Part shown: positions 16,642-33,693 of the stretch, in pieces
How positions within the stretch are numbered: position 1 is the first letter of the stretch
Layout of the letters: every line of letters starts with the position of its first letter
Source: a virus
DNA: 64,000 nt
IMG/VR virus record: IMGVR_UViG_3300050821_007139
Location: 1-64,000 of that record
Direction: 5' to 3' (one strand)
The notes under the pieces: generated by a model
Databases searched by the model: none
Seen by the model: only the letters and a program-made list of their open reading frames with translations
Told to the model about the DNA's origin: nothing
Program-made: the position numbers and the translations under genes

Positions 16642-18050
16642 TGAAATATATCTTCTTTACATTCTCTGGGCATTCATTACCGATAGCCAAGCGGTTGATT
16701 GATGAGGGCAATGAAGTCGAGGTCGGTCAAGTTTCAAGGCCCGAAAAGCTTAATGTCAAAGGCTGGCAGGCCCATAAAGAGACTCCAGAGGAACAACGCC
16801 GCCGGCTTTCACTTTATGATGGAATTATTGAAAAACAAGACGCCGATAAATTACTAAATAATCTTCGTTTTAACAAGGACAAAGAGGATATCTTTGTTGT
16901 TCTTGATCATAATAACCTTTGCGAATACGGTGAAAAATTAAATTCGATGGGATATATCGGTTTAATCCCGCTTCGTGAAGATTATACAATGGAAAAAGAA
17001 AGAACGGCGGCGAAGAATTTTGTTGAAAAAAATTATTCTTTACTTCAAGTGCCTGAATCAAAAGAATTTAAGAAAGCCCAAGATGGAATTGATTTAGTCG
17101 AAGATTCTGATGAGCTCTGGGTTCTTAAGAGTAATGGAAATATCGGTGATACCATAGTTCCACGAACTACTGATACCCAACTTAATCATATGGTAATTAT
17201 AGGCGCACTCAAGTGCGACTCAAAGGATTATGAAAAGGAGGGATATATACTTGAAAGGAAACTTAGATCGCCTATCGAATTTACTCCACAGCTTGCATTT
17301 TGGAACGGTGAGCCGATTTACTCACATGTGGAAATAGAATGCAAGCCAATTGGGGCCGGAGACACTGGCCCCGACGGTGGAGGAGCTTTAAATCTAGTCG
17401 TCAAAACCAACCTAGACGACGAAATAAACGCTATGTTTTTCCCCCCAATTATCTTCGAGATGGCAAAGAAACGCTCGGGCTTATTTATTTTCGACGCTGG
17501 GATACTTTATGACGAAGATGATTCAAGATTTTATTTTACTGAGTTCGCAGGGAATAGATGGGGTTGGGGTGGAATCTATTCGGAACTATCTATGGCAACT
17601 AATAAGAATAGAAATGCGACCGAATATTTTGAGCGCGTAAGTGCTGGAAAGAGTCCTCTTCATTATAAATATGGTGCTACGGTTAGTTTATATAATATCC
17701 TCCCTGATAAGAAATTTGCGTCGTTGGAGTGTGACTGTTTGCCGATTTATTGGCGAAGAGCGGCAGATGAATATTTATGGTTGTATCAGATAAGGAAAAA
17801 TGAAGAAGGGGTTATTGTAAATACAGGATGTTTTAAAGATTCAATTCTTGGTTACGCTAGTGGATGTGGAGATTCATTATCGAAATGTATCAGTTTAGCT
17901 TATAAAGTAATTGATAATTTTGCATTTAAAGAATTCCTTTTTAGACCTAAAGGTGATTTTTTATCTAAAGATTATCCAAGCTCAATTTTAAATCGTTTAG
18001 AGGCGATTAAAGAAATATTAGATAATATAGAAAAGAAAGAAGCCGCATAA
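16641..18050 (+). CDS. ATP-grasp ligase (divergent PurD/GARS-like)
   Basis: 'MEKER..AK', 'WVLK', 'YILERKL', 'ECKP.G.GDTGP.GG', 'YFTEF..NRWG'. Confidence 0.7.
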   Translation: MKYIFFTFSGHSLPIAKRLIDEGNEVEVGQVSRPEKLNVKGWQAHKETPEEQRRRLSLYDGIIEKQDADKLLNNLRFNKDKEDIFVVLDHNNLCEYGEKLNSMGYIGLIPLREDYTMEKERTAAKNFVEKNYSLLQVPESKEFKKAQDGIDLVEDSDELWVLKSNGNIGDTIVPRTTDTQLNHMVIIGALKCDSKDYEKEGYILERKLRSPIEFTPQLAFWNGEPIYSHVEIECKPIGAGDTGPDGGGALNLVVKTNLDDEINAMFFPPIIFEMAKKRSGLFIFDAGILYDEDDSRFYFTEFAGNRWGWGGIYSELSMATNKNRNATEYFERVSAGKSPLHYKYGATVSLYNILPDKKFASLECDCLPIYWRRAADEYLWLYQIRKNEEGVIVNTGCFKDSILGYASGCGDSLSKCISLAYKVIDNFAFKEFLFRPKGDFLSKDYPSSILNRLEAIKEILDNIEKKEAA

Positions 18051-18557
18051 ATGAAATTAAAAATAATTCTATTTCTTGTCTTTATGATATCGCTTTCTGC
18101 TCATGCTCAAGTTCCAGTATTTGTTGCGCCGGAGTTTATACAACATTTTTTTCTTACCAATGGTTCTGTTTGTGCTGGGTGTCAATTGTTTGTTTATCAA
18201 GCTGGAACAACTACAAAAACTCCGACTTATATTGATAGTACAGGGACTACAACTAATACAAATCCGGTTATTATGAATTCTCGCGGGGAGCCACAAGCAG
18301 GAGCACCGAATGGATCTATTGGTATTTGGCTTGCTGCAGGGCTTTATAAAGTCGTACTTGCTCCAGCTAATGATTCTGATCCTCCTACTAATCCCATTTG
18401 GACAATTGATGGTGTCTCAAGTTCGCTTATTCAACCTACCGCGCCAGTAAGCTCGGTATCGCCTTGTGTTCCGGGTGAATTTGCTCAGGACACAAGTTTC
18501 TTTTATAGCTGTGTAGCTATAAATACTTGGAAACGTGTCGCGTTAAATTCGTTTTAA
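18051..18557 (+). CDS. Tailspike virion-attachment (head-binding-type) adaptor with Sec signal peptide
   Basis: Signal MKLKIILFLVFMISLSAHA; 'FF..NG....G.QLFVYQAGTTT...Y.D..G...NTNPVI.NSRGE...IWL..G.YKVVL'; C-term 'YSCVA.NTWKRVAL'. Confidence 0.75.
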   Translation: MKLKIILFLVFMISLSAHAQVPVFVAPEFIQHFFLTNGSVCAGCQLFVYQAGTTTKTPTYIDSTGTTTNTNPVIMNSRGEPQAGAPNGSIGIWLAAGLYKVVLAPANDSDPPTNPIWTIDGVSSSLIQPTAPVSSVSPCVPGEFAQDTSFFYSCVAINTWKRVALNSF

Positions 18558-18569
18558 TCATGGAGTGTA

Positions 18570-18827
18570 GTGGCTATGAAAACAATATTCGGAGTTATAT
18601 TTACAGTTTCGCTAGGCTTCAGTCAGGTTGCTCTTTCTCAAGATGTTCCACAAACTCCTCCTAGTGATACAGAATATGATTCGCAACGTTTTACGTTGCT
18701 TAATGAACAGAATAAGTTCCTTACTATGACAATTCTTCGTGATCGGGCGCAAGCTAAAGAAACTGCAGCTTGGTGGGCCGAAGTTTGGAAAGCATTGCCT
18801 GATCCTAATAAAGTTGGAGTTAAATGA
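18570..18827 (+). CDS. Small secreted protein
   Basis: SD ggag; Sec-type signal ending 'VALS'. Confidence 0.6.
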   Translation: MAMKTIFGVIFTVSLGFSQVALSQDVPQTPPSDTEYDSQRFTLLNEQNKFLTMTILRDRAQAKETAAWWAEVWKALPDPNKVGVK

Positions 18828-19303
18828 AACTAATCTTTAAGACTCTTGTCTTAGCTTGTTTGGTAGCGTTAGTTTCAACTTCAGCTAACGCTACCTGTGA
18901 GCGCGTGGTTCAGAATGGAACTGTAATAAATGGTGCTCCGGTAGTTTTTATTACTGAATGCTTGATTGCTCGTGCTGGCGGCAGTGCTGGGAGTACAATT
19001 GCTAATGGCCTCCCTATGATTACCGACCTTGGTGTTATGGGGCCGTTTGGGATTATCGACGCTCCAATTACAGGGGCGTATCATAAAGGCGTATTTAGCT
19101 GGCAAGGTAATAATCTTGTTTTAGCTCTTAATGGTCTTGGCGGCGCTGGCGTTCCAGGGCTTTGTTTATCAATTAATGGCGGGCAATTAATATCGCTTGG
19201 CGGCTCAAGTTGTGGTGGCGGAGGCGGGGGCGGCGACGCATTATTAATTCAAACTGGAAGCAAATTATTAATTCAAACTGGCAGTGTATTATTGATTCAG
19301 TGA
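18824..19303 (+). CDS. Secreted fibre-associated protein
   Basis: Signal ending 'SANA'; C-terminal G-linker plus tandem 'LLIQTGS' repeat (direct DNA repeat ttattaattcaaactgg). Confidence 0.65.
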   Translation: MKLIFKTLVLACLVALVSTSANATCERVVQNGTVINGAPVVFITECLIARAGGSAGSTIANGLPMITDLGVMGPFGIIDAPITGAYHKGVFSWQGNNLVLALNGLGGAGVPGLCLSINGGQLISLGGSSCGGGGGGGDALLIQTGSKLLIQTGSVLLIQ

Positions 19304-19317
19304 GGAAATTTAATAGT

Positions 19318-22300
19318 ATGAAGAAATTAATCTCTTTCGTATTTGCTTCACTGGGTTTTATAAGTCCAGCGTTAGCTGATGGTACAATTAACACATTAAA
19401 TCCTGGTAATTCCCTGACTGGATCAGAGTTGATTCCAATGTTTCAGGGTAACAACCCTATGACGACAACAAACCCAGTAGCACTTGGAACTTATCTTAAT
19501 GGGACCTTTCTTGTAAAAGGAAGCAATTTCATTCCAGGGGGAATGACAATATTAAATTATAATGCGTCTAATTTGACACTTCCTCCGGCTGCTGGATCTG
19601 TTCTACAAGTAATCGGTACTGATGGTGTTTCCGCAAGAATTGAAGTAGATTCTTTTAATACACCAGCGAAGCATGATGTGGTATGTTACGGGGGAACTTT
19701 TGCTTCTAGGACTGGTGTATTAGGCGGAACCAATTGCGGTGGTTATGATGTCTTTGCTTACAATGGTACTTCTGCTATTGGTCCTTTGGCTGGCATAGGA
19801 TTTTTCACATCTGAAAATCAATCATCCGGCCACGGAGGCATGGAGACGGTTTTAACTACAACTCCAAATGGAACCACTACAAGGATTAATAGAGTTAAAA
19901 TTACTAACGATGGAGCAATATTGGTTCCAGATACAGTTACTGGAGGAAGTCAAGGCCCAGGGACCATTAATATGGCAGGGTGTTTTGTTAATGGTGCTCC
20001 TTGCGGTGGTGGGGGCGGTGGATCTCCAGGAGGAATTACTAATAGTTTTCAATTTAATAACTCTGGCGCCTTTGGCGGTTCATCAAATCTACTCAATGGG
20101 GCTGGCGAGGTAGTTGTTAATTATAATTCCTCAACTTTACCGGCGCCTCTTGGTGGAACAGTTTTACAGATTGCCTCGCCGAATTCTACCCTTACAAGGG
20201 CCGAGGTAGACGCATGGGGCGCCGGATTTGGACCTAATTGGACCACCAGATTTGCTCGGGGGACTGCTGCTGCACCGTCGGCGGTTCAAAGTGGAGATAA
20301 CATTGGCGGATTTAATTCTTTCGGATACGGCGCAAGTGGATACTCAGTTAGCAATCGCGGTGGTTTTCGTGTAGTCGCAATTGAAAATTGGAACGATAGC
20401 GCTCAAGGAACCGAAGTCGATATTGATACTATAAATCTAGGATCGCTGAATTTAATTCAAGCCGCTAGGTTTTCCAGTGCTAATGCTATCTTCAATCATA
20501 GCGGAGCAACACTGCCGACTCCGCTTCCTGGAACAGTTCACCAAATTGCTGGGCCTACTGGAAACAATGTCAGGGCTGAGCTAGATTCTTGGGGAGTAGG
20601 ATTTGGGCCTAACTGGACAACACGTTACGCTCGCGGAACTCCCGGTGCGCCATCGGCAGTGCAATTAGGGGATAATATCGGCGGATTTAATTCCTTTGGT
20701 TATGGTGCAACCGGGTATTCCTTCAGCAACCGTGGTGGTATGAGAGTCCTCGCTACTGAAAATTGGACCGATACTGCACAAGGCACCGAGACTGATATTG
20801 ATATTACAAATACAGGAACTCAAACGTTAGCACAAGCAGCCAGATTTTCTAGTAATGGGTCTGTGATAGGCACACCTACTGGTAGTTTTCAAGGCCCTGG
20901 AACACTTAATATGGCAGGGTGCTTTATTAACGGCGTTGCTTGCGCGACATCTGGCGGCGGTGGTATAACTTGGCCAGCAACAAATGATATTGTTATTTCT
21001 AATGGAACTAGTTCGCCTGCAGGACTTGCACCTGTTAATGGGTCCTTAGTTATTGGTGCTGGCGGAGTCTGGGGAACATTAGGAATTGGGTTGAATACTT
21101 ATGTTCTTACATCGAATGGTACTACTGCATCTTGGCAGCCTGCAAGTGGCGGCGGCAGTGGTACAGTTTCAAGCTGCTCGACTATCTATGCGCTAGGTTA
21201 TTACGCCTCGACTGGCACCACAATTTCATGCCTTCCGAGTTCTGGAACGCCAACAACTATATTGCATGGTAATACGGCAGGCCCAGCAACATACGGCCCG
21301 GTCAATCTTAGCACTGATGTATCCAGTCTATTGCCAGACGCGAATCTTAATCCAGCAGGGTTCGGGCCGGCTGGGAGTTATACCAGCGCGAATATTACGG
21401 TGAGCGCAACAGGGCGCATAACGGCGGCTGCCAATGGTGGCGTCGCAGGCAATTTCTTTACCACCAACGCGGCGACGACGGGCGGCCCAACTGTCTATGC
21501 CTTAGCACTGACAGGGTATGCAACCAATGCTGGGAATTATATCTGCACTGCATCATTTACCCCAACGAATGGCGCAAATCCCACGCTTAATCCAAATACG
21601 ACCGGGCCGAAACCAATTCAGCTTCTAACTTCGACAGGGCTTGTCTCATTAGCTGGCGGCGAGATCCCAAACGCTAAACCTGCGTGTTTTATTTATGATG
21701 GTACGAATTATATCTACCAATCTATACAGGTAGCTGCACCGCCATTATTTGCTACTGATACGGTAACTCTACCAAAGTGGGTTGGATGCCAGTCGTATGT
21801 TATCACGACTGCAGCGCAGACGATTACGCTTCCAACTTCAACCGGGCTCCCGACAGGTGGCTGTGTCAATATCACGACGATTGGTGTAACGGCGCAACTT
21901 GCACCAACCGGCGCTTCAGGTGACGCGATTGATAACGGTCAAGTTGGCGGCGGCGCTGCAAATGCGGCAATCACGCTACCGGCTGATTTTTCAGGGCAAG
22001 TGACTTATAGCGGAACCCCAGGCGTAACGGCGTTTTCAATTCCTCTTGGGCCGGTACAATACGCACCGTTATCTTGGGGAGTTGGAGCAGATCTATCGCT
22101 TAACACGGGTGGAATTGATTTCGTAAGATTTGCGACGCCACGTGTGGTTTACGGTGTCAAGTGTAAGAATAATACGCTAGCTGGCACTGCACAAACTATG
22201 ACGTTTAAGTATCAGACTGATGCAGGCGGAACGATGGCTACGGGAACTACTATCTCTTCTGCGCCATTTGATATGAATGCAAATCTTGGATTGGAACAAA

Positions 22301-22413
22301 CGATTACCTTGACATCAAGCCCACTTCCCGTACCTGCCGCTTACTCTGTTGGAAGTACTATTAGCGGTAGTTCTACAGCAGGTTCCGGCCGCTGTCAGTA
22401 CACATATAGATAA
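19318..22413 (+). CDS. Long tail-fibre-like protein with Sec signal peptide and internal repeats
   Basis: Start re-called to ATG 19318 (SD gaggaa; MKKLISFVFASLGFISPALA); 'LTGSELIPMFQG' fibre N-terminal motif; three related ~125 aa repeats; Gly/Thr-rich. Confidence 0.75.
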   Translation: MKKLISFVFASLGFISPALADGTINTLNPGNSLTGSELIPMFQGNNPMTTTNPVALGTYLNGTFLVKGSNFIPGGMTILNYNASNLTLPPAAGSVLQVIGTDGVSARIEVDSFNTPAKHDVVCYGGTFASRTGVLGGTNCGGYDVFAYNGTSAIGPLAGIGFFTSENQSSGHGGMETVLTTTPNGTTTRINRVKITNDGAILVPDTVTGGSQGPGTINMAGCFVNGAPCGGGGGGSPGGITNSFQFNNSGAFGGSSNLLNGAGEVVVNYNSSTLPAPLGGTVLQIASPNSTLTRAEVDAWGAGFGPNWTTRFARGTAAAPSAVQSGDNIGGFNSFGYGASGYSVSNRGGFRVVAIENWNDSAQGTEVDIDTINLGSLNLIQAARFSSANAIFNHSGATLPTPLPGTVHQIAGPTGNNVRAELDSWGVGFGPNWTTRYARGTPGAPSAVQLGDNIGGFNSFGYGATGYSFSNRGGMRVLATENWTDTAQGTETDIDITNTGTQTLAQAARFSSNGSVIGTPTGSFQGPGTLNMAGCFINGVACATSGGGGITWPATNDIVISNGTSSPAGLAPVNGSLVIGAGGVWGTLGIGLNTYVLTSNGTTASWQPASGGGSGTVSSCSTIYALGYYASTGTTISCLPSSGTPTTILHGNTAGPATYGPVNLSTDVSSLLPDANLNPAGFGPAGSYTSANITVSATGRITAAANGGVAGNFFTTNAATTGGPTVYALALTGYATNAGNYICTASFTPTNGANPTLNPNTTGPKPIQLLTSTGLVSLAGGEIPNAKPACFIYDGTNYIYQSIQVAAPPLFATDTVTLPKWVGCQSYVITTAAQTITLPTSTGLPTGGCVNITTIGVTAQLAPTGASGDAIDNGQVGGGAANAAITLPADFSGQVTYSGTPGVTAFSIPLGPVQYAPLSWGVGADLSLNTGGIDFVRFATPRVVYGVKCKNNTLAGTAQTMTFKYQTDAGGTMATGTTISSAPFDMNANLGLEQTITLTSSPLPVPAAYSVGSTISGSSTAGSGRCQYTYR

Positions 22414-22428
22414 GAGCCGTTTAAAAGC

Positions 22429-23022
22429 GTGATTACACGACGTAGGCTTATCGCAAGTGCGCTCGCCGCTCCGGCTATTATTCGTCCGGCTTCAGCTAAC
22501 TTATTGATGATGCCTGCTGCGGGTGGTGGTAGCTCCACAAATTTTATCACAGGTGAAACGTTAGGCGTGTTGAATAATAATGTCACCGATCTTCTCGGCT
22601 TTATTATGACGACAGGAGCAACGCCCATTACGATTACGGATCTTGGTCGCTGGAAAATATCTGGTAATAGTCTAACGCATACGATTTATATAATTGACAT
22701 CGGCTCTGCTGGAATGACTAACCCCGGCACATCTCTAGGCTCTGCAGTTGTTAATTTATCTGGCGGGACAATAGGTGCGTTTAATTATACAACATTGGGC
22801 TCGCCTGTAACGCTAGCAGGTAGTCATCAATATCTTGTTGTTTCATCAGAGACCGCTAGCGGAGATCAATGGTATGATCAGACGACAGTCGTCACAACAA
22901 CTACTGTCGCGTCTATTACGCAGTCTGCGATAATATCAGGTTCTAGTCCTACAGGAACATGGACAACAACCAGTATTGCTAATACTGATTATGGTCCATG
23001 TGATTTTAAATATCATCTGTGA
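22429..23022 (+). CDS. Tat-signal protein with DUF4082-like beta domain
   Basis: 'ITRRRLI...RPASA' twin-arginine signal; 'LGF..T....ITITDLGRWK.....TH' domain. Confidence 0.7.
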   Translation: MITRRRLIASALAAPAIIRPASANLLMMPAAGGGSSTNFITGETLGVLNNNVTDLLGFIMTTGATPITITDLGRWKISGNSLTHTIYIIDIGSAGMTNPGTSLGSAVVNLSGGTIGAFNYTTLGSPVTLAGSHQYLVVSSETASGDQWYDQTTVVTTTTVASITQSAIISGSSPTGTWTTTSIANTDYGPCDFKYHL

Positions 23023-23030
23023 GCTTTTAG

Positions 23031-26000
23031 ATGCGCCGCCGTGATCTATTAAAGATTAGTCCGGGGTTGCTGGTCCCGAAGATCGCTTTGGCGCGGCCTA
23101 AACATGGCGGCGGCGGTGCGGGGGCTCCTCCACCAACGCAGACTATTACAGCCGTTACGTTATCGAGTAATACCGTTGTGGGTGGCGCCGGATCAGCCAA
23201 TACGGTAATTGGGACCGCAACCGTTGTGCTCTCACCATCGAGCCCAAGTGCAAGTGGTATTGTTTGGAGCCTAGCGGGAACTGATGCAAGCCATTTTGTA
23301 ATCAATTCATCGACGGGCGTTTATAGCGTAAGTGGCTCTGATATTACGCCAGGGGTTTATAATGATGTGGAATTTGTGCCGACAAATGTGGCTTACACAG
23401 GATCAGGAACACATTTTACAAAAACTATAACAGCAACTGCTGTTGCGACGCCAGTAGCTATAACATTCAATCCAGCATCGCCAGCTACGGTTTATGACAC
23501 AGCGTTGTCCGGCGCGACAGTGAATATGCCTACTGTCACGATGTCAGATTCATCCACATTCACCGGAACGTGGGGGATACCGACAAATCCGGGCGGATTG
23601 CTGGTATTTTCTGGAAGTAATCTTAACCTAACACGAAATCTATCGCCCGCTGATATTGGCACGCCGCTTTTTACTATTAGTGCCCTAGAACACTCGACCA
23701 CGATTACAAATAATCTGACACTGAACATCACGGCGCCACCTGCAGGTGTTAATTTTATTACGTCGGTCACTGCCAGCACGAGTATGAACACGTATGGGTT
23801 CCCACTCGGGTTTGCGTTCACAGTTGGCAGCTCACCCATTACCGTCTCTGCTCTTGGTCGCTATAAGGTCAATTCGGGCGATAACCAAACACATTCATTA
23901 TATCTGCTAGATCCTACAATTGTAGATCCAGGTGGGAAATATCGCGTTGTGGCCGGCGGTTCAGCATCGGTCAATATCGGCAGTGCAACAGTCAATACGT
24001 TCACATATGGCAGCGTAGTGAGTCCAACTACGCTCCTCACGGGACATCAATATATTCTGATCAGTACTGAAACTAATGGCGGCGATCATTGGTTCGATCA
24101 AGGATGCGCTGTTACATCAACGGCTGATGCAGTGGTAAATTATCCCGTCTTCGTAAACGGCCCTGCGTTTAATCAGAACGTAACGCCGAATGGTGGCGGG
24201 AATCATGCCTACGTGCCGCTTGATTTTATCTATTCGGTTGGCGCCACGGCGGTTGCTACAATACAGGGTGGCCCTGGCTCGGTGGCCGGGCCAATAGTTA
24301 ACAATGCGCAGGCGCTATTCTATCCGACATTAACCTCCGGCGGGATCGGCACTGTAATCAGCGGATCAGCCGTTATTATGAACGCGACTTGGGTCAATGG
24401 AGGGCCTGAGCTGTCTTTCCCCGGCGTATCCGTCACTGGACAGTGGATGCGAGATAACGAGATCCCGATAAGTCCCGCCATTACATCGACTGGGGCGATA
24501 ATCTCTGGTGGACATTTCAACGGACAACCAGGTTGGTTTACTTATACTTTAGATACAACTACGATTCCAGATGGGGCTCATACGGTTTACTGTCGGATTA
24601 TTGATAGCGGGACCAGTCCTGCTCTTTCGTGCTATCAATGGGGATCGTGGGGGAAACCCTTTATTGTATCGAATGGGAGCCTTAATATTGGCAATCAGAC
24701 CATTTGGACATCGCAGTATTCAATAGGGCCGCGCTCACAGGTGCCAAAGCCTGATAGTGTCGCTTATAATAGCATTCCCAATCCAGTGAATGCTACGTAT
24801 CCATATCCCTATGCGGTTTCGGCGACAGCTACGGCTCGGGGCGGCGATCTGACGCGGTTTAGAGATGTAACGACAATTTGCGCCGAGGCCATTAATGCCC
24901 CAAGAGGCGGGGAATATCTTGGGCCGCCACAGTTTTGCACGACGCTACCAAGTAGCGGCAGCGGCGGAGTGTTTGTTGGGCATCAAGATCCGCTAGTTGA
25001 CGCTGGAAGTAATGCGGGCGCGTATCCCTATGTAATTCGGCAGAATTATCCAGATGGCACGAGACTAAATAATCAAACGGCGAATATTAGTACTTTCGTT
25101 GAGGCGCCAACGTGGTTGACTGGTGCTGGCGCGTGGCTCGGGTGCAGTGTTGAGGGTCGATTTTTCATCACCGACCAGTTTGGTAATACGACTACTCTAG
25201 CGGGATATACGCGCGATCGCACAGTATTAACGGTAGATCCAACTAATAGCACCGATAGTGAGTCCGATCTTACGCGGGTTTTAATTGGCACGTTTCCAAC
25301 GGACGTTGATCTTGGCGGCGCGACTGATCTGGTTGTTGATCCGCGAAATGATCATATTGTTTATGTGCTATGTCAGAATGCTGCCAATTGGCTTGCTAAG
25401 ATCACGCTGACGGGGACTAGTCTGGCGGGCGGTGTGACAGCGGCAGTAACTGTTTATGCTGGCTTGCCGGGAGCGCCCGATGCATATGTCGAGGCGCCCG
25501 GAACAGGCGCGACGAACGCACGGTTTTCTCAACCCATTAGCTTAGTAATCGTTGGCACAGTAAGCAATACGGCGGCGCCTAACGGCGATCCGGTCGGTAC
25601 GATCTACATTGCGGATCAGGGCAGCGCTGATCCGGCGCTCCCAAATAATAGTGCCATCCGCCGAATATCAGCTAACGGTTTAACTGTTGATACGCTATAT
25701 GGCGGTACTGTAGGCCCAACGCTGCCAACTGGAGCGCAAGTCAACGATTATACGGTAATCACCATTACGTCGATGAGTTGGAGCGCGACGGGCGGCGGGA
25801 CGGGGACTATCGTATCAGCTACGCCGATAACCTATGTTTCCGCGATTGGGTGTTCCGTAGCTTTTCTAGGTGTGGTGAATTCAGGATCGGCTCCCGTAAA
25901 CTCTAGCGATGGCGGACCAGCGGGATCGCCAAAGTTTTATGTAAATGGGTTTACTAATAATACCCATTTTACTATTGCTATGCCGGGGACTTCTGGTGTT

Positions 26001-27314
26001 GACTTCAATCCGGGGCTCTTTGGCGGGACCATTCAAATCTTTAGCTATGCTTCTGATAAGTACAGTCCGCCCGGCACCGTATCGCTAACCGGGCCAGCCG
26101 GCTGGACTGCTTTCCCCGGTTTTATTCGATGGAGTTCAGCACAGCATTTAGTTTTGTCAGAGTTTTGGACAGATAATGTACGGGACATCAATCTGGCGGC
26201 GAATACAATCAGGCGTATAGGAACGTTTGATAATCGCATTCAGGCGTTAGATCCGGCGCCGGGTAGCTGGCTGGGGATGGACTGTGATTATGCTGGAGTG
26301 CTTGGCCCAGTTGATGATATTATCTTAGCTAAGTTCCAATCCAACGCGAGCGCCGCTCATTACGTCTGGCGCGTAGGGTTTGATAGTACTGGTTTCAATG
26401 GCGGAAGTGCCTATACTCAAGGGAGCTTCAGTGACTTTGGCTCCTTTCCAACTATTGGCCAATCATCGACACTTTTAGCGGGAGCGGGACATTACCCCTG
26501 GGCATGGTCATTCTCGCGCACACAAGGCCGCGCAATCTCGACCGGTACAGCAAATGCGGCGCCCGCATTTCACCGCATTATGGAACCTGGCGATGTAGTA
26601 GTTAATATCGGCACCAGTCAGAACATTGATTTCGCGAAATGGACGAATGGTAATAATATATGGAATCAGGGCACCGTAACGGCGTTTCCCTGGACTGCGC
26701 GACCGGCGTTTAGCGCACTTTGGGGTTTTTGGGGTGACGGGCAAATCCTGGGACACACTTGGGATGACTTAATGCACAACACGGCATTAGGAAGCTTTGC
26801 GTCAAGCTCCCCAGGCGACGCAGGCGATATTGCACTTGCGAATTATATCCGCGCCGGCATGGGCGGATCAGTTCCGCGCCCTGAGATCACCGGCAATGAT
26901 ATGCGGGATCTGATTTATTTTATTAGGCGAAATACTCTGCTTGGTAGTGGATTAGTTGGTGGGCCGGCTTTGGTTGTTCCGGGTGCGGATGATGCTAACG
27001 TTACGCCGCCGTTGATCCTGACGTTAAGCGCGGTGCATAATGCGCCCGTAGGCGGGTTTGAATCCCTCACCGTAACGTGGACAACTGATACCTCTTGTAT
27101 CGGATGCGCAATGGCAGGAACAAGCTCGCAGCTTGGTCAGCCGTGGCCGACAAATATTCCCTCAGAGATTGAAAGTAGCTACGGCACGAGCCATAGTGTT
27201 ACCATTGCGGCGCCTAATGGTATCAAGCTGGGCGCGTCGCCGATATATTACCGCGTGATTGCTAAGGACATGGCAGGAAATTGTGTCTATTCAAACACCC
27301 TATCGGTGGCATGA
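23031..27314 (+). CDS. Large Tat-signal adhesin/receptor-binding protein (cadherin/Ig-like, DUF4082-like, NHL-type propeller, FN3-like)
   Basis: 'MRRRDLL...KIALA' signal; 'WSLAGTDASHF.I' cadherin-like; 'ARFSQP', 'IYIADQG...IRRI' NHL-like; C-term 'VTWTTD...H.VTI...YYRV.AKD.AGN'. Confidence 0.72.
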   Translation: MRRRDLLKISPGLLVPKIALARPKHGGGGAGAPPPTQTITAVTLSSNTVVGGAGSANTVIGTATVVLSPSSPSASGIVWSLAGTDASHFVINSSTGVYSVSGSDITPGVYNDVEFVPTNVAYTGSGTHFTKTITATAVATPVAITFNPASPATVYDTALSGATVNMPTVTMSDSSTFTGTWGIPTNPGGLLVFSGSNLNLTRNLSPADIGTPLFTISALEHSTTITNNLTLNITAPPAGVNFITSVTASTSMNTYGFPLGFAFTVGSSPITVSALGRYKVNSGDNQTHSLYLLDPTIVDPGGKYRVVAGGSASVNIGSATVNTFTYGSVVSPTTLLTGHQYILISTETNGGDHWFDQGCAVTSTADAVVNYPVFVNGPAFNQNVTPNGGGNHAYVPLDFIYSVGATAVATIQGGPGSVAGPIVNNAQALFYPTLTSGGIGTVISGSAVIMNATWVNGGPELSFPGVSVTGQWMRDNEIPISPAITSTGAIISGGHFNGQPGWFTYTLDTTTIPDGAHTVYCRIIDSGTSPALSCYQWGSWGKPFIVSNGSLNIGNQTIWTSQYSIGPRSQVPKPDSVAYNSIPNPVNATYPYPYAVSATATARGGDLTRFRDVTTICAEAINAPRGGEYLGPPQFCTTLPSSGSGGVFVGHQDPLVDAGSNAGAYPYVIRQNYPDGTRLNNQTANISTFVEAPTWLTGAGAWLGCSVEGRFFITDQFGNTTTLAGYTRDRTVLTVDPTNSTDSESDLTRVLIGTFPTDVDLGGATDLVVDPRNDHIVYVLCQNAANWLAKITLTGTSLAGGVTAAVTVYAGLPGAPDAYVEAPGTGATNARFSQPISLVIVGTVSNTAAPNGDPVGTIYIADQGSADPALPNNSAIRRISANGLTVDTLYGGTVGPTLPTGAQVNDYTVITITSMSWSATGGGTGTIVSATPITYVSAIGCSVAFLGVVNSGSAPVNSSDGGPAGSPKFYVNGFTNNTHFTIAMPGTSGVDFNPGLFGGTIQIFSYASDKYSPPGTVSLTGPAGWTAFPGFIRWSSAQHLVLSEFWTDNVRDINLAANTIRRIGTFDNRIQALDPAPGSWLGMDCDYAGVLGPVDDIILAKFQSNASAAHYVWRVGFDSTGFNGGSAYTQGSFSDFGSFPTIGQSSTLLAGAGHYPWAWSFSRTQGRAISTGTANAAPAFHRIMEPGDVVVNIGTSQNIDFAKWTNGNNIWNQGTVTAFPWTARPAFSALWGFWGDGQILGHTWDDLMHNTALGSFASSSPGDAGDIALANYIRAGMGGSVPRPEITGNDMRDLIYFIRRNTLLGSGLVGGPALVVPGADDANVTPPLILTLSAVHNAPVGGFESLTVTWTTDTSCIGCAMAGTSSQLGQPWPTNIPSEIESSYGTSHSVTIAAPNGIKLGASPIYYRVIAKDMAGNCVYSNTLSVA

Positions 27315-27331
27315 AGAGAGGTCAGTGAACA

Positions 27332-27532
27332 ATGCGCAGGATGAGTACCGGAGAAGCTAGAAGACGATTTGCCGAGATCATCAGGGAATCAGCACATACA
27401 GTTATAACAAGACATGGGAAAGATATTGCGGCCGTGGTTCCTATAAAAGATGTCCGGCAATTACCCCCAGGTGCGATTCAAGTTCTACAAAACCATGAGA
27501 TACTGATCTACTCTGGAAAAGATGGGTATTAA
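27332..27532 (+). CDS. Phd/YefM-family antitoxin-like protein (orphan)
   Basis: 'STGEARRRFAEII......VITRHGKDIAAVVP'. Confidence 0.8.
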   Translation: MRRMSTGEARRRFAEIIRESAHTVITRHGKDIAAVVPIKDVRQLPPGAIQVLQNHEILIYSGKDGY

Positions 27533-27554
27533 TGAGCGAAAGTAAGCTATAGAT

Positions 27555-28727
27555 ATGCGAAGAGTCAGCTTACTCTTACTTATTGTATCGCTTGCTACGA
27601 CACTGATAGGGTTGTTGGTTTCGCTGCCAAATCGCGCAAATATGCTTTTTATGCCGTCAGGGTCAGGTGGTGGGATTAGTCCAGATGGATCTTTTATTCA
27701 AGCTCCGGCAACTGGAGTCACGGGCGCTGCGGCGGGATCATTAAGGACCGTATATGGTACTTTCTCATTCGGGGATTTATACGCGCCTGTCCCGCATTAT
27801 GGTGGCGGACAGCTTTACATCCCGTTGCTAAACGGCGTGCAGATGGAGCCGGGGCAGACGTTCGTATGGGCGCAGTTCTTTTATGTCGGGTACGGCGGGA
27901 ACGCTTTTGCAATGGTTACGGGTGATCAGCTACAAGCATCGTGGAGCAATAGTTCGTGGAACGGTGATAATGGTGGCACAGGGCCGGGACCATTTACCGG
28001 GTTTCCAGGCTTTGGCGGGGCTAATCAGATACCCGTTGGGACGCCGACCCCACCAACATTGCCGACAGCTTGGGCCGGTCCTTACACACCATCAGCAGAT
28101 GGTACAGCGATCTCAGGTGGAACAGGAACCTTAACCTCAGCACGGGGAGATGGTGGGATATGGACTTTTGGTGCTGCTAGCGGCGGCGGATATATCATGC
28201 AGCGCCAGGGTATCACCGTATCGACGCCCAATTCAGGCTCGCTCACGCCTTATATCGTCACCGATATGCAAATAAGCGCGTTTGGCTCGTTATTTTTTAA
28301 GACGGTAGATACAGTGTGGCACGTATGGAGCGGTCATCAGGCGAACGCCTCGACGGGGCCGCCCGGTACGGTGCCGATTCCAGTGGCGGTTAACTTCACG
28401 CCAAATGGATCGCTACCGCATGTGACGGTTGGCTCGGCGGATGGAACATTCGTCGCAGGCGTCGTGACCACTATGAGTGATGGGGGCAGTTCTGTCGGCA
28501 CGCTTTCTATCGGCCTCGACTTTAACACTGGTACGCGATTGTTGCGTAACTGGAATAGCGCCGATCCCTGTCCGTCTAGCTGTTCGGCAAATACGACGAT
28601 AGTTGTGTGCGGCGTTGGCACTATAGGCACGGGGCTGGGATGCGTCGGCACTTATAATGGATCGAGTTCTCCGGTGACTGTAACGCAAAATGGAGCTTCG
28701 ATCGTGTCAAAGATTAACGCGCAATGA
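27555..28727 (+). CDS. Secreted Gly/Pro-rich fibre/adhesin-like protein
   Basis: 'MRR' + hydrophobic signal ending 'NRA'; duplicated 'S.DG..I......L....G.WTFG' unit; Cys-rich C-terminus. Confidence 0.65.
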   Translation: MRRVSLLLLIVSLATTLIGLLVSLPNRANMLFMPSGSGGGISPDGSFIQAPATGVTGAAAGSLRTVYGTFSFGDLYAPVPHYGGGQLYIPLLNGVQMEPGQTFVWAQFFYVGYGGNAFAMVTGDQLQASWSNSSWNGDNGGTGPGPFTGFPGFGGANQIPVGTPTPPTLPTAWAGPYTPSADGTAISGGTGTLTSARGDGGIWTFGAASGGGYIMQRQGITVSTPNSGSLTPYIVTDMQISAFGSLFFKTVDTVWHVWSGHQANASTGPPGTVPIPVAVNFTPNGSLPHVTVGSADGTFVAGVVTTMSDGGSSVGTLSIGLDFNTGTRLLRNWNSADPCPSSCSANTTIVVCGVGTIGTGLGCVGTYNGSSSPVTVTQNGASIVSKINAQ

Positions 28728-28731
28728 CCTA

Positions 28732-28860
28732 ATGAGGATCTCCCTCGACTATCAGACGGGTAGCGAGCATAAGCGCATGCGGCTTTGCCTGAGCTTCTAT
28801 GGCAACGGCTGGCGCCGGAGCATCCCCGTCTGGTTTTGGACCAAATCGTTTTTCGTGTGA
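28732..28860 (+). CDS. Possible 42-aa leader ORF upstream of tatA
   Basis: Hand-translated MRISLDYQTGSEHKRMRLCLSFYGNGWRRSIPVWFWTKSFFV; stop overlaps the tatA SD. Confidence 0.35.
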   Translation: MRISLDYQTGSEHKRMRLCLSFYGNGWRRSIPVWFWTKSFFV

Positions 28861-28877
28861 GGGAGTGACCACACCTT

Positions 28878-29105
28878 ATGGGCTCGCTAAGTCTCGCTCA
28901 TTGGCTGGTTGTTTTCGCGATCGTCACATTTCTATTCGGGGCTGGCAAAATCCCCCGACTTATGAGCGACGCGGCGAAGGGTGTAAAAATTTGGAAGAAA
29001 GAAATTCACGCTCCGCTCGAAGATGTTGTTAGCAACGTGAACGAAACATCTGCAGAGGTAAGAGCACTTAATCCGTTACCCACAATTAAAAAGCTTGGAT
29101 TATGA
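28878..29105 (+). CDS. tatA: Twin-arginine translocase TatA/E subunit
   Basis: [41 protein letters not shown]: TM helix, FG hinge, amphipathic helix of alphaproteobacterial type; SD gagggag. Confidence 0.92.
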
Positions 29106-29278
29106 TAATTCGCGCGTTTGTATGGATCTTAATATTACTGCTTGTAGCTCCGGCTTTCGCTAAGCCAAAACATGGTGGCGGCGGAGGCGGTGGGGCGCCG
29201 TCGAATTTTATACTGAATGACGCAGGAACTGCGATTCTCACCAATGACGCTGGCACACAGAGGTTAACTCCGCCATGA
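29102..29278 (+). CDS. 58-aa secreted peptide (not in ORF track)
   Basis: [58 protein letters not shown]; ATGA overlaps at both ends. Confidence 0.75.
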
Positions 29279-30228
29279 AACGATATCTTTGGTTTCTTTT
29301 AGTTTTTATATTTCCTGCATCGTCTATGGCCGATGTAACTTTTAGCTCGACTCGGGCGTATCAATCAGTATCGCTAACTGGCAGCGCATTTATTCCAAAT
29401 GTTCTGCTTGGCTCAAACTTGACCCTAACTCTCGTTCACGGAACTTGTCCGTGTACATTGAATAATATGACCAATATTTATCCTGGTCAGTTCGGTGTAG
29501 TTCATATTATAAATAGCTCTAGTGGTAGCGAGATTCTTACCCTATCAGGTAGTCAATATTCGTTGACTGTAACGCCTCCTTTTACACCAGATCCAGCATC
29601 TGAAAACGATTGGTTTTATACAGTCAACGCGGATAGCAAGGTATTATTTACATCAGCGGCATTACCACCTTCGATCTCTAACACACAGGCGAATTTGCTC
29701 TCCGGCGCCGACGGAATGACAAGTGGCTGGACTGCACAAAACGCGACGCTTGCCACGGGCGCGACATGTACTAGCCCAATTGGCGGCACAAATACCTGTG
29801 CTTTATTGACTGAAGATACGACTACAAATACGCATTTCGCGTTTCAAAACACAACGCTACCGACATCCACAAATACCGCGAGCGTGTTTGCCAAGATAAA
29901 TTCCGGCACACGTTTTGTAGAGTTTCGAATAGCTGACAATTCTTTTGTCAATGTTGCTAGTGAGATATTCGATCCGGTAACGTGCTCGGATACGATATCA
30001 GGTACTGGTGCTACCACGATTGGAACGGCGGTAATTATCGGTCATGGGACCATAGCGCGCTCAAACGGGTTTTGTGAGGGATGGATACAGGCGAATTTAG
30101 GCGGCGCTGTTCCGGTATTTGAGAATATCCAATTAGCAACACCGGCTGGTGATAATTATCTTGGAACGGGGCAGAGTAATTTATTGTGGCGTCCTGCAGT
30201 GAGGAATTGTGTATGCTCACCACCATGA
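29275..30228 (+). CDS. Secreted fibre/spike protein with C-terminal CBM/jelly-roll-like domain
   Basis: Signal ending 'SSMA'; 'NLL......W......A..L.ED....H...T.S.FAK' domain; paralogous to C-terminal part of next gene. Confidence 0.68.
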   Translation: MKRYLWFLLVFIFPASSMADVTFSSTRAYQSVSLTGSAFIPNVLLGSNLTLTLVHGTCPCTLNNMTNIYPGQFGVVHIINSSSGSEILTLSGSQYSLTVTPPFTPDPASENDWFYTVNADSKVLFTSAALPPSISNTQANLLSGADGMTSGWTAQNATLATGATCTSPIGGTNTCALLTEDTTTNTHFAFQNTTLPTSTNTASVFAKINSGTRFVEFRIADNSFVNVASEIFDPVTCSDTISGTGATTIGTAVIIGHGTIARSNGFCEGWIQANLGGAVPVFENIQLATPAGDNYLGTGQSNLLWRPAVRNCVCSPP

Positions 30229-32480
30229 AACGAATTATTCTTACACTTGCTATTGCGATGGCGAGTGCATTTCCGGCGCTTGCCCAAAATCAGGGAACTA
30301 CTAGGCTTTTTCCTCCGATCGATGACTTGAGCCTGGTGAATCATCAGCCCTGGGCCTGCACTCAACTTACTGCTGGCTGTGCGTTTAACGTAATCACGCC
30401 AAATCCAGGTATTGATCAGAGTGCCCAGATACAGGCTGCGCTTAATGGGTCGAAAACTTTGCCGGTAATGTTAGTTGGCGGTCCATTCATTTCTTGCACA
30501 CAGCTCCAGGTTCCCAACTATGGAACCTTTTTAAGCTATAATACCCTTGCTTATGATCCATTTTTTGGGACAGAAGCAAATACTTACCTGTCATGCAATA
30601 GTACATTTCATGGCACTAGTTTTGTTGCCTTTACTGGGTTACATGGCGGGTTGATTCGAGATATCGCTATTGATGATAATTATACGCATCAAACAACTTT
30701 TGTGGGATCAATTTCGGGAACAACACTTTCTGTCGCTTCAATTACATCGAGCAATCTATCTCCAACGATTACGGTCGGCCAAAGTTTGCAGGACGCGGCA
30801 GGTCATATTGCGATGACGACGCAGATAACCGCACTTGGTACTTGTGGAAATCCCGTTGTTCCGCCTTGTACTTTTTCTGTGTGGCCGTCACAGACAGTTG
30901 CAAGCGAAACTATGGGTGCTACAGTACACTGCTTTGAAAACATCCATAATGCTTCGTTCACCACTGCCTACGATATTCAAGGTGTCCGCTGTACGGGGGA
31001 TGGATATCATGTTGTTGCCGATGGTAATCAGCCGGGTGGGCAGGGAATTGGTGGCGCTATCATCCGTCCATTAATTGGTGGCGCCCATACATATCTATCA
31101 CTAAATGTTGGCGCTGGATTACGTGTCGATCAGGTAAATAACGGATTTGCCTCGGATCTTTCAGTGCAATGCTGTCTCAATGCAGCAAGCAACTCGAATA
31201 ACGGATTCTTCGGTCAATCAGTCGGGGATATTATACTGGCTGGGACAACTGGTCAATATGACAACCTTCGGACAGAGCAAGATGGAGCGTGTGGAGTTGT
31301 ATTGCTTAATAGTGGCTACTTAACTCTTTCTAATTTACACGTTGACTCAAACTCATGCGTTGTTAAGGCGTTTAATTCATCGCTCAGTTTGATAGGTGGA
31401 GATGCGTTTAATAGGTTTACTGGGGTCACGGCGATTCAATTATTCAACTCCACTATGACTATGCAAGGATTTTTTCTAGGCCCCGGATATTCATCTTCGA
31501 TCCAAGCTGACGCCACGTCACATTTCTCCGGTTGGTTCGGCGGTACTAACCCTGGAATATCTTTTGCCGACCCCACAAGCGAACTTGTAGTGGGCCCAGG
31601 ATTAATAAATTCAGTCGGCGGCAACCCGCCAGCTACCGTAACGCTTACCGGAGCCGCTTTTGCTGCACCCGATTTATTACGCTCGGCCAACTCTATATTT
31701 GCCTTAAATCATGCGGGTTGTGCAGGTGGAACCGGCGGACATTGCTCTGTTCCGAACCCGACTTTTTTCACTAAGGGCACGAATGGCGTTTTTGAAATTC
31801 AGCAAAGTCTTACCGGCAATGATACAATTACTTGGGGTTCTGCATATGTTAATGCGCCAACACTCAGTACGGGAGCTGGTGCGGTAGATTATGTACCGTG
31901 GTATGTAAATTCAGTCGGTCAGGTAGTGCTCGAAGCGCCTAATCAGAATCGGCTTGTTACAACTCCTGTTCCGGCCCAGCCTAACATTGTCACGCTACCA
32001 TTGAGTTTTGCTGGTGGCGTATGGGGCGGTGGAACGCCTACGGCAGGTCAACTCGATCCAGAAGGCGGCACTACAGCAGTATTATTTACCGAAGATTCCA
32101 GCACCGGTTATCATGGCATATCAACTAATGTTACAGGTGCTGCTGGCACTTATACCGCCTCGTTCTTCTTCAAAGTTGGCGCTACCGGGGCGACGCGTTA
32201 TGCAAACCTTCAGATCAATTCGACTACGACTAATGACCAGGTACAGTATCAGGTCAATCCCTGTAATAATACAGGAGCGAGTGGCGGAGAAATAGTTGCA
32301 AGCGGGTGCATCATGTCACCAAATGGATATGGGCGGGTGTATTTGACTGTGGCAGCGCCGAGTGCATTATCAAGCGTCATATTCTTTATGGGTGATTATA
32401 GTAATTATACCTATACGGGCGACGGCGTTTCTAATGGTTATTTCTGGGGGCCAATTATGCGTGCTGGGAATGCGCCATAA
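30225..32480 (+). CDS. Secreted tailspike-like protein (beta-helix plus C-terminal CBM-like domain)
   Basis: Start re-called to ATG 30225 (MKRIILTLAIAMASAFPALA); 'D.SAQIQAALN' beta-helix cap; 'F.GSISGTTL.V' motif; many Cys. Confidence 0.72.
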   Translation: MKRIILTLAIAMASAFPALAQNQGTTRLFPPIDDLSLVNHQPWACTQLTAGCAFNVITPNPGIDQSAQIQAALNGSKTLPVMLVGGPFISCTQLQVPNYGTFLSYNTLAYDPFFGTEANTYLSCNSTFHGTSFVAFTGLHGGLIRDIAIDDNYTHQTTFVGSISGTTLSVASITSSNLSPTITVGQSLQDAAGHIAMTTQITALGTCGNPVVPPCTFSVWPSQTVASETMGATVHCFENIHNASFTTAYDIQGVRCTGDGYHVVADGNQPGGQGIGGAIIRPLIGGAHTYLSLNVGAGLRVDQVNNGFASDLSVQCCLNAASNSNNGFFGQSVGDIILAGTTGQYDNLRTEQDGACGVVLLNSGYLTLSNLHVDSNSCVVKAFNSSLSLIGGDAFNRFTGVTAIQLFNSTMTMQGFFLGPGYSSSIQADATSHFSGWFGGTNPGISFADPTSELVVGPGLINSVGGNPPATVTLTGAAFAAPDLLRSANSIFALNHAGCAGGTGGHCSVPNPTFFTKGTNGVFEIQQSLTGNDTITWGSAYVNAPTLSTGAGAVDYVPWYVNSVGQVVLEAPNQNRLVTTPVPAQPNIVTLPLSFAGGVWGGGTPTAGQLDPEGGTTAVLFTEDSSTGYHGISTNVTGAAGTYTASFFFKVGATGATRYANLQINSTTTNDQVQYQVNPCNNTGASGGEIVASGCIMSPNGYGRVYLTVAAPSALSSVIFFMGDYSNYTYTGDGVSNGYFWGPIMRAGNAP

Positions 32481-32526
32481 ATGAGCCTTAAGTGATATAT
32501 TTGTTAGTTGGACATGGAAGATTCTA

Positions 32527-32760
32527 ATGAGCGAACAGGAAAAACCAACTCTCTGGTCTCGTATTCGCGAGTTCTTATATCCACCACGGCCTGACAAAAC
32601 AGCCGTTGGTTACCTTGACTTTGCAGCTGGGGTTGATGACTGTGGTCGTTGCGCCCATTATCTTTCTACTACACACCGCTGTAAACTTATCCGTGGTCGG
32701 GTATCTCCTAACGGATGGTGCCGGTACTTTGTAAACCCAGGGGAGAATCAGCCCTTTTAG
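32527..32760 (+). CDS. HiPIP-like (high-potential iron-sulfur) domain protein
   Basis: 'CGRCAHY......CKLIRGRVSPNGWCRYF' four-Cys HiPIP spacing. Confidence 0.7.
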   Translation: MSEQEKPTLWSRIREFLYPPRPDKTAVGYLDFAAGVDDCGRCAHYLSTTHRCKLIRGRVSPNGWCRYFVNPGENQPF

Positions 32761-32793: not shown

Positions 32794-33591
32794 GTGGCTA
32801 CAGATGATAACGGCATCTCCGAGTTAAGAAATGCGACTGATGAACTTAAACGCGTTATTGACTTAGTACGGGACCGCTCCTCTATATGGACGCTCCCGCC
32901 TCAGTCGTCGGTGGGATTACCTATAGGTTCAGATAACTGGAATTTTACTACATTTGAGAAATATATTAACCAGCGCTTTGGCGATCTTTCGTTACAGTTG
33001 CGCGAGCGCTATGAAGCGCAACAGACTGGCGTTATTGCTGCTTTGGCCGCTGCCGAGAAAGCGGTTAACGCAGCGTTGATCGCCGCTGAGAAGGCAGTTG
33101 ATAAAGCAGAAGGTGCCCAGCAGCTTCGTAACGAAGCGCAAAATGAGTTTCGTAAATCACTTTCCGATCTTTCAGGATTGATGTGGACTAGTAAAGAAGG
33201 CTTGGCAGCGGTTGATTCAGTACGACGCGAGCTTAACGCCCTAGTAACAAATGCGGAAAATCGTATCGGCGTGATTGAAAAGTCTATTGCTGATAAGTGG
33301 AATTCTAAGGATGGCCAGTCAGCGGTAGATTCGGCGCGCCGTGAGAGGGTTGAAAGCTTTAGTCTTTTGGAAAAACGCACCGGAATATTAGAAACTGGTT
33401 ACGCGAATCTTCAAGGGCGCATTTGGGCTGTGAGCGCATCATTTGCAATTATAGTTGTCATTGTTGAGATTGCTATGCATTTCATACCTTCTTCTGTTTC
33501 TCCTACACCCATCCCTTCTATGTATAATAGTACGCCATCATCTCAGTGGCCGACGGCGGTTCCAACCGCACCCGGTGGTCCACAAAAATGA
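32794..33591 (+). CDS. Coiled-coil membrane protein upstream of endolysin
   Basis: 'AAEKAV' repeats, single C-terminal TM helix. Confidence 0.6.
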   Translation: MATDDNGISELRNATDELKRVIDLVRDRSSIWTLPPQSSVGLPIGSDNWNFTTFEKYINQRFGDLSLQLRERYEAQQTGVIAALAAAEKAVNAALIAAEKAVDKAEGAQQLRNEAQNEFRKSLSDLSGLMWTSKEGLAAVDSVRRELNALVTNAENRIGVIEKSIADKWNSKDGQSAVDSARRERVESFSLLEKRTGILETGYANLQGRIWAVSASFAIIVVIVEIAMHFIPSSVSPTPIPSMYNSTPSSQWPTAVPTAPGGPQK

Positions 33592-33689
33592 ACGAAACCG
33601 ATCCTATAGCAATAGCGCGATTCTTTTTAGAAATCTTTTTACTTATTGGCGCCATCGGAATTTTGCTTCTCCTTATAGATCATAGATAA
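33588..33689 (+). CDS. 33-aa single-TM protein, holin candidate (not in ORF track)
   Basis: MNETDPIAIARFFLEIFLLIGAIGILLLLIDHR; ATGA overlap; immediately before endolysin. Confidence 0.5.
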   Translation: MNETDPIAIARFFLEIFLLIGAIGILLLLIDHR

Positions 33690-33693
33690 AATT

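Follow-up and report, generated by a model that had tools for sequence, protein, structure and literature searches.

A block of genes at positions 18051 to 32480 of the virus record IMGVR_UViG_3300050821_007139 lies at the tail-fibre locus of a podophage, and 10 of its 12 consecutive open reading frames (ORFs) begin with a Sec- or Tat-type export leader, the two exceptions being a TatA protein and a Phd-like antitoxin. The window analysed here is the first 64 kb of this complete IMG/VR record of 91,468 bp, which has direct terminal repeats of 97 bp. We tentatively read the block as the podophage's own tail-fibre/tailspike module, rebuilt as exported proteins that would dock on finished particles, and put the probability of this best explanation at roughly 0.4. 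The more general claim, that a P22-type podophage lineage builds its receptor-binding apparatus outside the cytoplasm by means of Sec and Tat, periplasmic disulfides, docking at the time of lysis and a TatA of its own, is possible and is held with even more reserve.

Signal peptides were called by a heuristic of our own based on the n-, h- and c-regions and on the residues at −3 and −1, not by a trained predictor, and genes were called as greedy longest ORFs. Proteins are named below by the start position of their genes. All ten ORFs and N-termini listed in an earlier note on this DNA were present as described and the heuristic flagged 10/10 of them as signal-bearing. Throughout the genome it flagged 25 of 161 ORFs (15.5%), as compared to 4 to 5% in P22 and Vibrio phage VvAW1 and zero in three related loci. 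In each of the seven proteins assigned to Sec (18051, 18570, 18824, 19318, 29102, 29275 and 30225) a basic n-region, an h-region of 7 to 15 residues and small residues at −3 and −1 were found. The twin-arginine leaders of 22429 (TRRRLI) and 23031 (RRRDLLK) were borne out by the motif, by a low hydropathy of the h-region (1.94 and 1.78, respectively, against 2.2 to 3.5 in the rest of the block) and by a basic residue in the c-region (R and K at −5, respectively). A third, weaker leader of this type had been proposed for 27555; here the arginine pair is present, but the 22-residue segment that follows, with a hydropathy of 3.03, misfits Tat, and this N-terminus could be a Tat signal, a Sec signal or a membrane anchor. 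The leaders are retained in homologues: 4/4 full-length homologues of 30225 (41 to 46% identity) start with Sec-type leaders of unrelated sequence, and P0167, the single long homologue of 23031 (30% identity), likewise has a twin-arginine leader at its start, MARRLTRRTVLTGAAATASSPALA.

The cysteine motifs CAGC, CFVNGAPC, CPSSC, CPC and CVCS were all recovered from the translations of the block. Cysteine parity was then evaluated for mature parts of at least 60 residues, even meaning an even, non-zero count. Signal-bearing proteins comprised 20 even, 1 odd and 3 cysteine-free cases, the sole odd one being the Tat candidate 22429; the corresponding numbers for the other ORFs were 27, 47 and 35, in a class that holds some spurious frames because of the greedy longest-ORF calls (Fisher p = 8e-7). 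The same coupling was visible at the level of a single cysteine pair in the family of 18051. A search with this protein against 1.84 billion representatives gave 8,354 matches, and leader and CxGC pair were scored in the best 150 representatives of the anchor family, 138 of which were scorable. Of these, 58 have a leader ahead of the domain and 80 have none, a leader share of 42% that overstates the share in the family (about 5% in IMG/VR) because the ranking favoured similarity to a query that itself bears a signal. A CxGC pair just 5′ of the conserved LF.YAAGT motif was present in 38/58 relatives with a leader and in 2/80 without (Fisher p = 7e-17), and in one of the latter two a leader follows an N-terminal extension. 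Leaders maintained despite sequence drift, together with cysteine pairs that come only with the leader, are as export to an oxidising compartment predicts. The sequence data thus support the view that the block leaders behave like real export signals, and we infer export by Sec, or by Tat for two or three proteins, followed by leader cleavage and disulfide formation.

Two features of the predicted mature N-termini may be mentioned besides. With about 8 of 22 predicted Sec leaders (for instance 18051, 18570, 30225, 36448 and 81268 and, on the minus strand, 44774, 55674 and 56280), and also in many signal-bearing relatives of 18051, the mature protein would begin with glutamine; this may reflect an N-terminal pyroglutamate or hint at the host group. 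Moreover, otherwise unrelated pairs of proteins have tags in common directly after the cleavage site, N(L/M)L(M/F)MP..GGG in 22429 and 27555 and (R/K)PKHGGGG in 23031 and 29102, which may be docking or sorting tags.

The first gene of the block (18051..18557; this and the further genes listed for the phage are on the plus strand) encodes a 168-residue head-binding adaptor. Its Sec signal (MKLKIILFLVFMISLSAHA, with predicted cleavage before QVP) is followed by an anchor domain of the P22-tailspike type at approximately residues 23 to 128, which contains the CAGC pair, and by a 40-residue C-terminal module with a second cysteine pair; a receptor-binding body is absent. The protein matched phrog_17312 (tail-protein C-terminus). 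An AlphaFold2 (AF2) model built from 81 sequences had a predicted local distance difference test score (pLDDT) of 81.5, with values above 90 over residues 30 to 125. In Foldseek this model retrieved the N-termini of the tail fibres of the cyanopodophages Pan3 and Pam1, the head-binding domain of the P22 tailspike (1lkt, probability 1.0, TMt 0.69) and Sf6 gp14N, the matches with a probability of 1.0 being 1lkt, 2vky, 8tvr, 7sg7, 7eeq and 9vyg. Compared with the tailspike head-binding domains to which the earlier note had pointed, 18051 matches in fold, and judged by this modelled fold it is a head-binding domain of the P22-tailspike type. A profile search of the genome with the 18051 domain revealed no second head-binding domain in the 91 kb. 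In a tree of the anchor domain, the best topology required 25 changes of the signal state as compared to about 45 with shuffled labels, and only two independent pairs lie on supported branches.

By sequence matches of its coat, hub and ejection proteins the phage is a P22-type podophage. The coat protein belongs to phrog_283 (E 2e-81) and has about 40% identity to those of Vibrio phage VvAW1 and Xanthomonas phage PBR31, and a match to a gp7-type ejection protein adds to this assignment. The genes follow in the order coat, adaptor paralogues (5163 to 6623), hub, three ejection proteins (9474 to 15585), a 144-residue ORF, an Asp/Glu racemase, an ATP-grasp-like gene and the fibre block. The hub (6627..8414; phrog_578, E 4e-68), a homologue of P22 gp10 and Hc3, lacks a signal peptide and is presumably the protein on which the anchor domain would dock. 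The ATP-grasp-like gene (16641..18050), for which neither Pfam nor NCBIfam gave a match, served as a synteny marker, as it lies directly upstream of the fibre gene in relatives.

The block occupies the place of the fibre gene in relatives, 3′ of the ejection-protein genes. A signal-less fibre or tailspike opens with the same anchor domain in the uncultured loci L001, L002, L003 and L010 and in the cultured Xanthomonas phage PBR31 and Rhodoferax P26218. An ATP-grasp homologue stands directly 5′ of the anchor-fibre gene in L001, L003, L010, G001, L100 and L103, not in L002; a further ATP-grasp relative, L006, proved to belong to an unrelated phage and was set aside as uninformative. The order of ejection genes, ATP-grasp gene and anchor-fibre gene is thus common to relatives with and without a leader. 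Of 93 anchor-domain ORFs in 90 IMG/VR loci, four or five have a leader. G001, one of these, is a complete phage of 59,747 bp, with identities to the present phage of 68% for the coat, 52% for the portal, 45% for the hub and 53% for the anchor. Its ATP-grasp gene is followed by four consecutive signal-bearing proteins of 469, 844, 115 and 781 residues with 7, 16, 2 and 14 cysteines, respectively, and it has essentially no other signal-bearing ORF; a census of its ORFs revealed no signal-less fibre-like gene. A hub-based scan further yielded L103 (hub identity 44%), in which a signal-bearing anchor fibre is followed by a signal-bearing protein of 124 residues, and L100, with 53% the most similar in the hub, in which the fibre has no leader. 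The gene at the fibre locus therefore exists in both states within one hub-type lineage. A mixed state between the signal-bearing and the signal-less designs is represented by L010, a 41.9-kb IMG/VR contig, where at 9510 to 13505 a signal-less anchor fibre lies among signal-bearing neighbours, namely a 128-residue protein upstream and proteins of 135 and 595 residues downstream, with 4 and 8 cysteines in the 128- and 595-residue ones.

The clear tatA that had been claimed inside the block (28878..29105) is borne out by its Pfam score and by its alignment with solved TatA chains, though not by the stricter NCBIfam cut-offs. It scored 27.4 bits against PF02416 (cut-off 21), and its alignment with E. 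coli TatA (2mn7) and with 9e07_F begins at residue 1. The protein has the TatA architecture, that is, a short N-terminal transmembrane (TM) helix with a polar residue near position 8, an FG hinge (LFGAGKIP) and a basic amphipathic helix, and it ends in the tail NPLPTIKKL. Among database proteins, only P0008, which has 67 residues and is encoded on an NCBI contig of 2.5 kb, is a close relative, and it has the same tail, whereas the tails of TatA proteins are normally not conserved. The stop codon of tatA overlaps the next start (ATGA), indicative of translational coupling to 29102; the gene adjoins those of the twin-arginine cargo and forms one operon with the signal-bearing fibre genes. Neither tatB nor tatC was found in the 91-kb genome. 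No relatives of the phage TatA were detected in INPHARED or among the close relatives in IMG/VR, none is encoded by G001, and a scan of genome contigs retrieved ordinary cellular TatA genes only. In a comparison with 401 genomes of one phylum the identity was 44 to 60% over the N-terminal 43 to 58 residues, which gave no indication of the host. In the simplest reading, the phage TatA would provide extra protomers for the TatBC receptor of the host in order to carry a cargo of 145 kDa.

The following sequence of events may be envisaged. Sec would export seven proteins of the block, and Tat two or possibly three, with the phage TatA adding protomers to the host TatBC receptor for the large twin-arginine cargo. 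In the periplasm the leaders would be lost and disulfides formed. Particle assembly would run its usual course in the cytoplasm and yield DNA-filled, fibre-less particles with a P22-type hub. Opening of the inner membrane by the holin would then mix the compartments, and the exported adaptor 18051 could dock on the hub together with the remaining fibre proteins, which it would bring along. The block proteins may in addition act on envelope glycans before lysis. Docking is favoured because the phage needs a receptor-binding protein, and the only fibre-like genes of two complete genomes, and here the only head-binding domain, are leader-bearing and lie at the conserved fibre locus next to a conserved hub. 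In P22, heads that lack tailspikes are stable, and adding tailspike in vitro makes them infectious; this possibility of completing tailspike-less heads in vitro also speaks for docking.

Several observations weigh against docking of exported fibres. To our knowledge, no tailed phage builds virion parts outside the cytoplasm, and a Tat cargo of 1427 residues, as encoded at 23031, is near the upper size known for this pathway. TatA remained below the NCBIfam cut-offs (48.8 for TIGR01411, cut-off 53.9; 63.6 for NF001940, cut-off 83), because only residues 1 to 47 match. The earlier note had treated all ten proteins as part of an exported tail-fibre system; fibre ancestry could be traced for 18051, 30225 and 29275 and is not established for the other seven (18570, 18824, 19318, 22429, 23031, 27555 and 29102), whose fibre nature is read from position and composition only. 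In L010, the signal-less fibre beside leader-bearing genes implies that signal-bearing neighbours need not be fibres. The genome has about 15 further signal-bearing proteins beyond the block, the early region included, and their number suggests a broader envelope programme. Finally, as the cellular precedents described below show, a fibre-like trimer can be exported, and can even retain a domain of the head-binding kind, without necessarily being part of a virion.

The last of these points leads to the strongest rival, an alternative already raised in the earlier note, according to which the block encodes surface or envelope proteins derived from fibre parts. These would act in the envelope of the infected cell and never join the virion, trimming or binding nascent capsule, exopolysaccharide (EPS) or O-antigen, masking receptors against superinfection or keeping progeny off debris, and the virion would recognise its host by something else, for example a needle-like protein. 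This proposal has published cellular precedents in WceF, a Tat-exported tailspike-like trimer that retains a P22-like head domain (PMC7949094), and in the mosaic adhesive trimer (MAT) fibres, 21/21 of which consist of a signal peptide followed by a conserved domain (PMC10769870). It also fits the arrangement in L010, the signal-bearing proteins outside the block and the presence of glycan-related enzymes in the structural module (a GT9-like gene, an FkbM methyltransferase and a racemase). It is harder to reconcile with a genome that holds no other head-binding domain, with G001, which has no signal-less fibre-like gene, and with a signal-bearing gene at the exact fibre locus of relatives that have a conserved hub; moreover 18051, an anchor domain with neither an enzymatic nor a binding body, is difficult to explain as a free envelope enzyme. 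We consider this rival rather unlikely as it stands and nevertheless a strong one.

In another rival reading each product is divided into two pools, a cytoplasmic one that becomes the virion fibre and an exported one with a separate role in the envelope. The cytoplasmic pool might derive from internal starts, from slow or saturated late export or from uncleaved precursor. In favour of this reading, 22429 (NLLMM), 27555 (NMLFM) and 29275 (SSMA) have methionine at the predicted cleavage site or adjacent to it, the relative P0016 retains the ancestral 'MLSPTP' start behind its leader, and phages are known in which a single depolymerase gene gives both a free and a virion-bound form. In 18051 and in most of its signal-bearing relatives, on the other hand, no methionine lies near the start of the domain, and if a cytoplasmic pool were selected, paired cysteines and CxGC would not be expected to track the leader. 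We regard two pools as improbable overall and as possible for some of the proteins. It is very improbable that the N-termini are no export signals at all but mis-called starts, tethers or pro-peptides, with the tatA-like gene serving another role such as lysis timing. This would fit with leaders called by a home-made heuristic only, with several block starts that have no clear Shine-Dalgarno motif, with the sub-threshold NCBIfam scores of TatA and with the N-terminus of 27555, which is more like a membrane anchor. It is contradicted by the textbook n/h/c architecture with AxA ends, by leaders kept in homologues despite unrelated sequence, by the coupling of cysteine parity and CxGC to the leader, which points to export, by a leader rate threefold that of the control phages, and by a TatA that passes the Pfam gathering score and aligns from its first residue with solved structures. 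On balance we prefer an exported fibre module that docks on finished particles.

The remaining genes of the block are described in the order of their positions. The adaptor is followed by an 85-residue protein (18570..18827) with a Sec-type signal and by a Gly-rich protein of 159 residues (18824..19303) with four cysteines, a Sec signal ending in STSANA, with predicted cleavage before T, and a repeated LLIQTGS in the C-terminus. The next gene (19318..22413) encodes a repeat protein of 1031 residues with a Sec signal (ISPALA before DGT) and 14 cysteines in the mature part, for which only weak partial matches were obtained in phages and in the PDB. The two twin-arginine proteins come next, 22429..23022 with 197 residues, the leader MITRRRLIASALAAPAIIRPASA before NLL and a single cysteine, and 23031..27314 with 1427 residues, the leader MRRRDLLKISPGLLVPKIALA before RPKHGGGG and 12 cysteines; the mature part of the former is a paralogue of residues 233 to 403 of the latter. 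A Phd/YefM-family antitoxin-like ORF without a signal peptide (27332..27532; TIGR01552, 28.9 bits, cut-off 20.8) is probably outside the export system, and stands alone in the fibre block with no evident toxin partner. The 390-residue protein 27555..28727, with its arginine pair and 22-residue hydrophobic N-terminus, has four cysteines including CPSSC and has the first of the post-cleavage tags in common with 22429. Downstream of tatA, a 58-residue protein (29102..29278) has a Sec signal and the mature start KPKHGGGGG, in common with 23031.

The last two proteins of the block are related to each other. The mature part of 29275..30228 (317 residues, Sec signal, 8 cysteines) is homologous to the C-terminal 275 residues of 30225..32480 (751 residues, Sec signal with AFPALA before QNQ, 16 cysteines) and aligns to residues 471 to 746 of the latter. 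The start given for 30225 in the earlier note is less certain, in that an ATG at 30213 with GAGGA upstream may be the true one, and the signal is present either way. A profile of the 30225 family matched Rcc01080 of the gene transfer agent (GTA) RcGTA (6tb9; E 5.7e-13) at query positions 561 to 748, i.e. over the last 190 residues or so. On this profile evidence both 30225 and 29275 carry a virion-spike domain like the head spike fibre of RcGTA. An AF2 model of 30225 from five sequences (pLDDT 44) was too poor for use, and 29275 alone found no sequence match in the PDB. PDB sequence searches with 23031 and 27555 gave nothing meaningful, Pfam and PHROGs gave no match for 8/10 signal-bearing block proteins, tblastn of block proteins against cultured phages gave short partial matches only, and neither IMG/VR nor the metagenome contigs yielded a match when scanned with the 30225 family and P0002. 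For the seven proteins other than 18051, 29275 and 30225 these searches revealed no family.

Just downstream of the block (33546..34335) lie the lysis genes, comprising a candidate holin, read from the sequence alone as a 47-residue ORF with a single TM helix, and a signal-less GH25 endolysin (PF01183, 112.6 bits; phrog_291). The structural module encloses several enzymes (2298 to 4341, 16003 to 18050 and 34637 to 35749): a TPR plus heptosyltransferase-like gene, an FkbM-family methyltransferase, the Asp/Glu racemase and the ATP-grasp-like gene, which may serve glycan or peptide modification of the virion or the envelope. A subtilase (37408 to 38523; Peptidase_S8, 41 bits) occurs in the company of late genes that include further signal-bearing proteins (36448) and a lipobox protein (39150). 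From 20000 to 38000, i.e. over the fibre and lysis region, the GC content climbs from about 0.40 to about 0.50. A foreign island was rejected as the origin of this rise because of the synteny between the block and the relatives' fibre loci; the rise can probably be ascribed to a Gly/Ala/Thr-rich protein composition, a mosaic origin being possible. A second run of five signal-bearing proteins with even cysteine counts (230, 144, 118, 377 and 377 residues) is located at 80098 to 83907 of the full record, one of them Gly-rich and one with an RR leader. It is preceded by a signal-less 125-residue ORF with a fibre-like N-terminus, and the large terminase lies just downstream. DNA of the phage was found in soil metagenomes, in three runs, with no RNA run among those listed.

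Textbook assembly of tailed phages is wholly cytoplasmic. If virions gain their host-recognition parts after export, their assembly would follow a new route, which would matter for the timing of lysis, for the engineering of host range and for reconstitution in vitro; if it holds for the lineage, this would be a two-compartment route not described for any tailed phage. Otherwise, a large phage group would have turned its fibre module into envelope-acting proteins and would recognise its hosts in some other way. With a phage TatA beside twin-arginine cargo, a virus would, in nature, supplement the exporter of folded proteins, which bears on how the number of TatA protomers limits the size of Tat cargo. 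By means of cysteine parity and the coupling of CxGC to the leader, such proteins can be sought in metagenomes simply and without a predictor.

In the literature searched we found no description of signal peptides on the tail fibres of tailed phages, nor of a phage-encoded TatA. Genes with Sec signals have been reported in Porphyromonas phages and were read as using the secretion system of the host (Matrishin et al. 2023, PMC10367356); the genes named there are capsid, spanin and unknown ones, and neither tail fibres nor Tat components are mentioned. Among cellular systems, stand-alone or cargo-linked TatA paralogues such as E. coli TatE and the phoD-tatAd-tatCd genes of B. subtilis likewise provide an extra TatA-type gene with the same helix-hinge-helix, here located beside the would-be cargo; the present TatA differs in being phage-encoded, without a tatC and with the conserved NPLPTIKKL tail. 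The likeness to Rcc01080 of RcGTA covers the C-terminal 190 residues or so of the 30225 family and a region also present in 29275. The GTA protein, however, is a signal-less particle component, whereas 30225 and 29275 have Sec signals and 8 to 16 cysteines.

The MAT proteins of Bdellovibrio bacteriovorus resemble phage tail fibres and have a conserved domain of about 130 residues directly after the signal peptide and swapped distal adhesin tips (PMC10769870); they are cellular and displayed by the predator, and are likened to the present proteins by design. WceF of Pantoea stewartii is a tailspike-like protein with a Tat leader and a P22-like N-terminal head domain, and acts on exopolysaccharide (PMC7949094). 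It is one protein encoded by a chromosomal gene in an EPS cluster, whereas here a whole fibre block stands at the fibre locus. Both WceF and the MATs are thus encoded by cellular genes outside a virion module, in contrast to the present block, which belongs to a complete phage genome with terminal repeats and no signal-less alternative. The closest likeness in fold is to P22 gp9, which has gp10/gp4 as its hub, to Sf6 gp14N and to the Pam1 and Pan3 proteins; the mature domain of 18051 has their fold, in combination with a gp10-type hub, a P22-type coat and the same order of ejection genes. The domain of 18051 departs from these systems in that it follows a Sec signal of cleavable appearance, has gained CxGC and forms a stand-alone adaptor of 168 residues without a spike body. 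The solved P22-type head-binding examples are all made and attached in the cytoplasm, unlike what is proposed for 18051.

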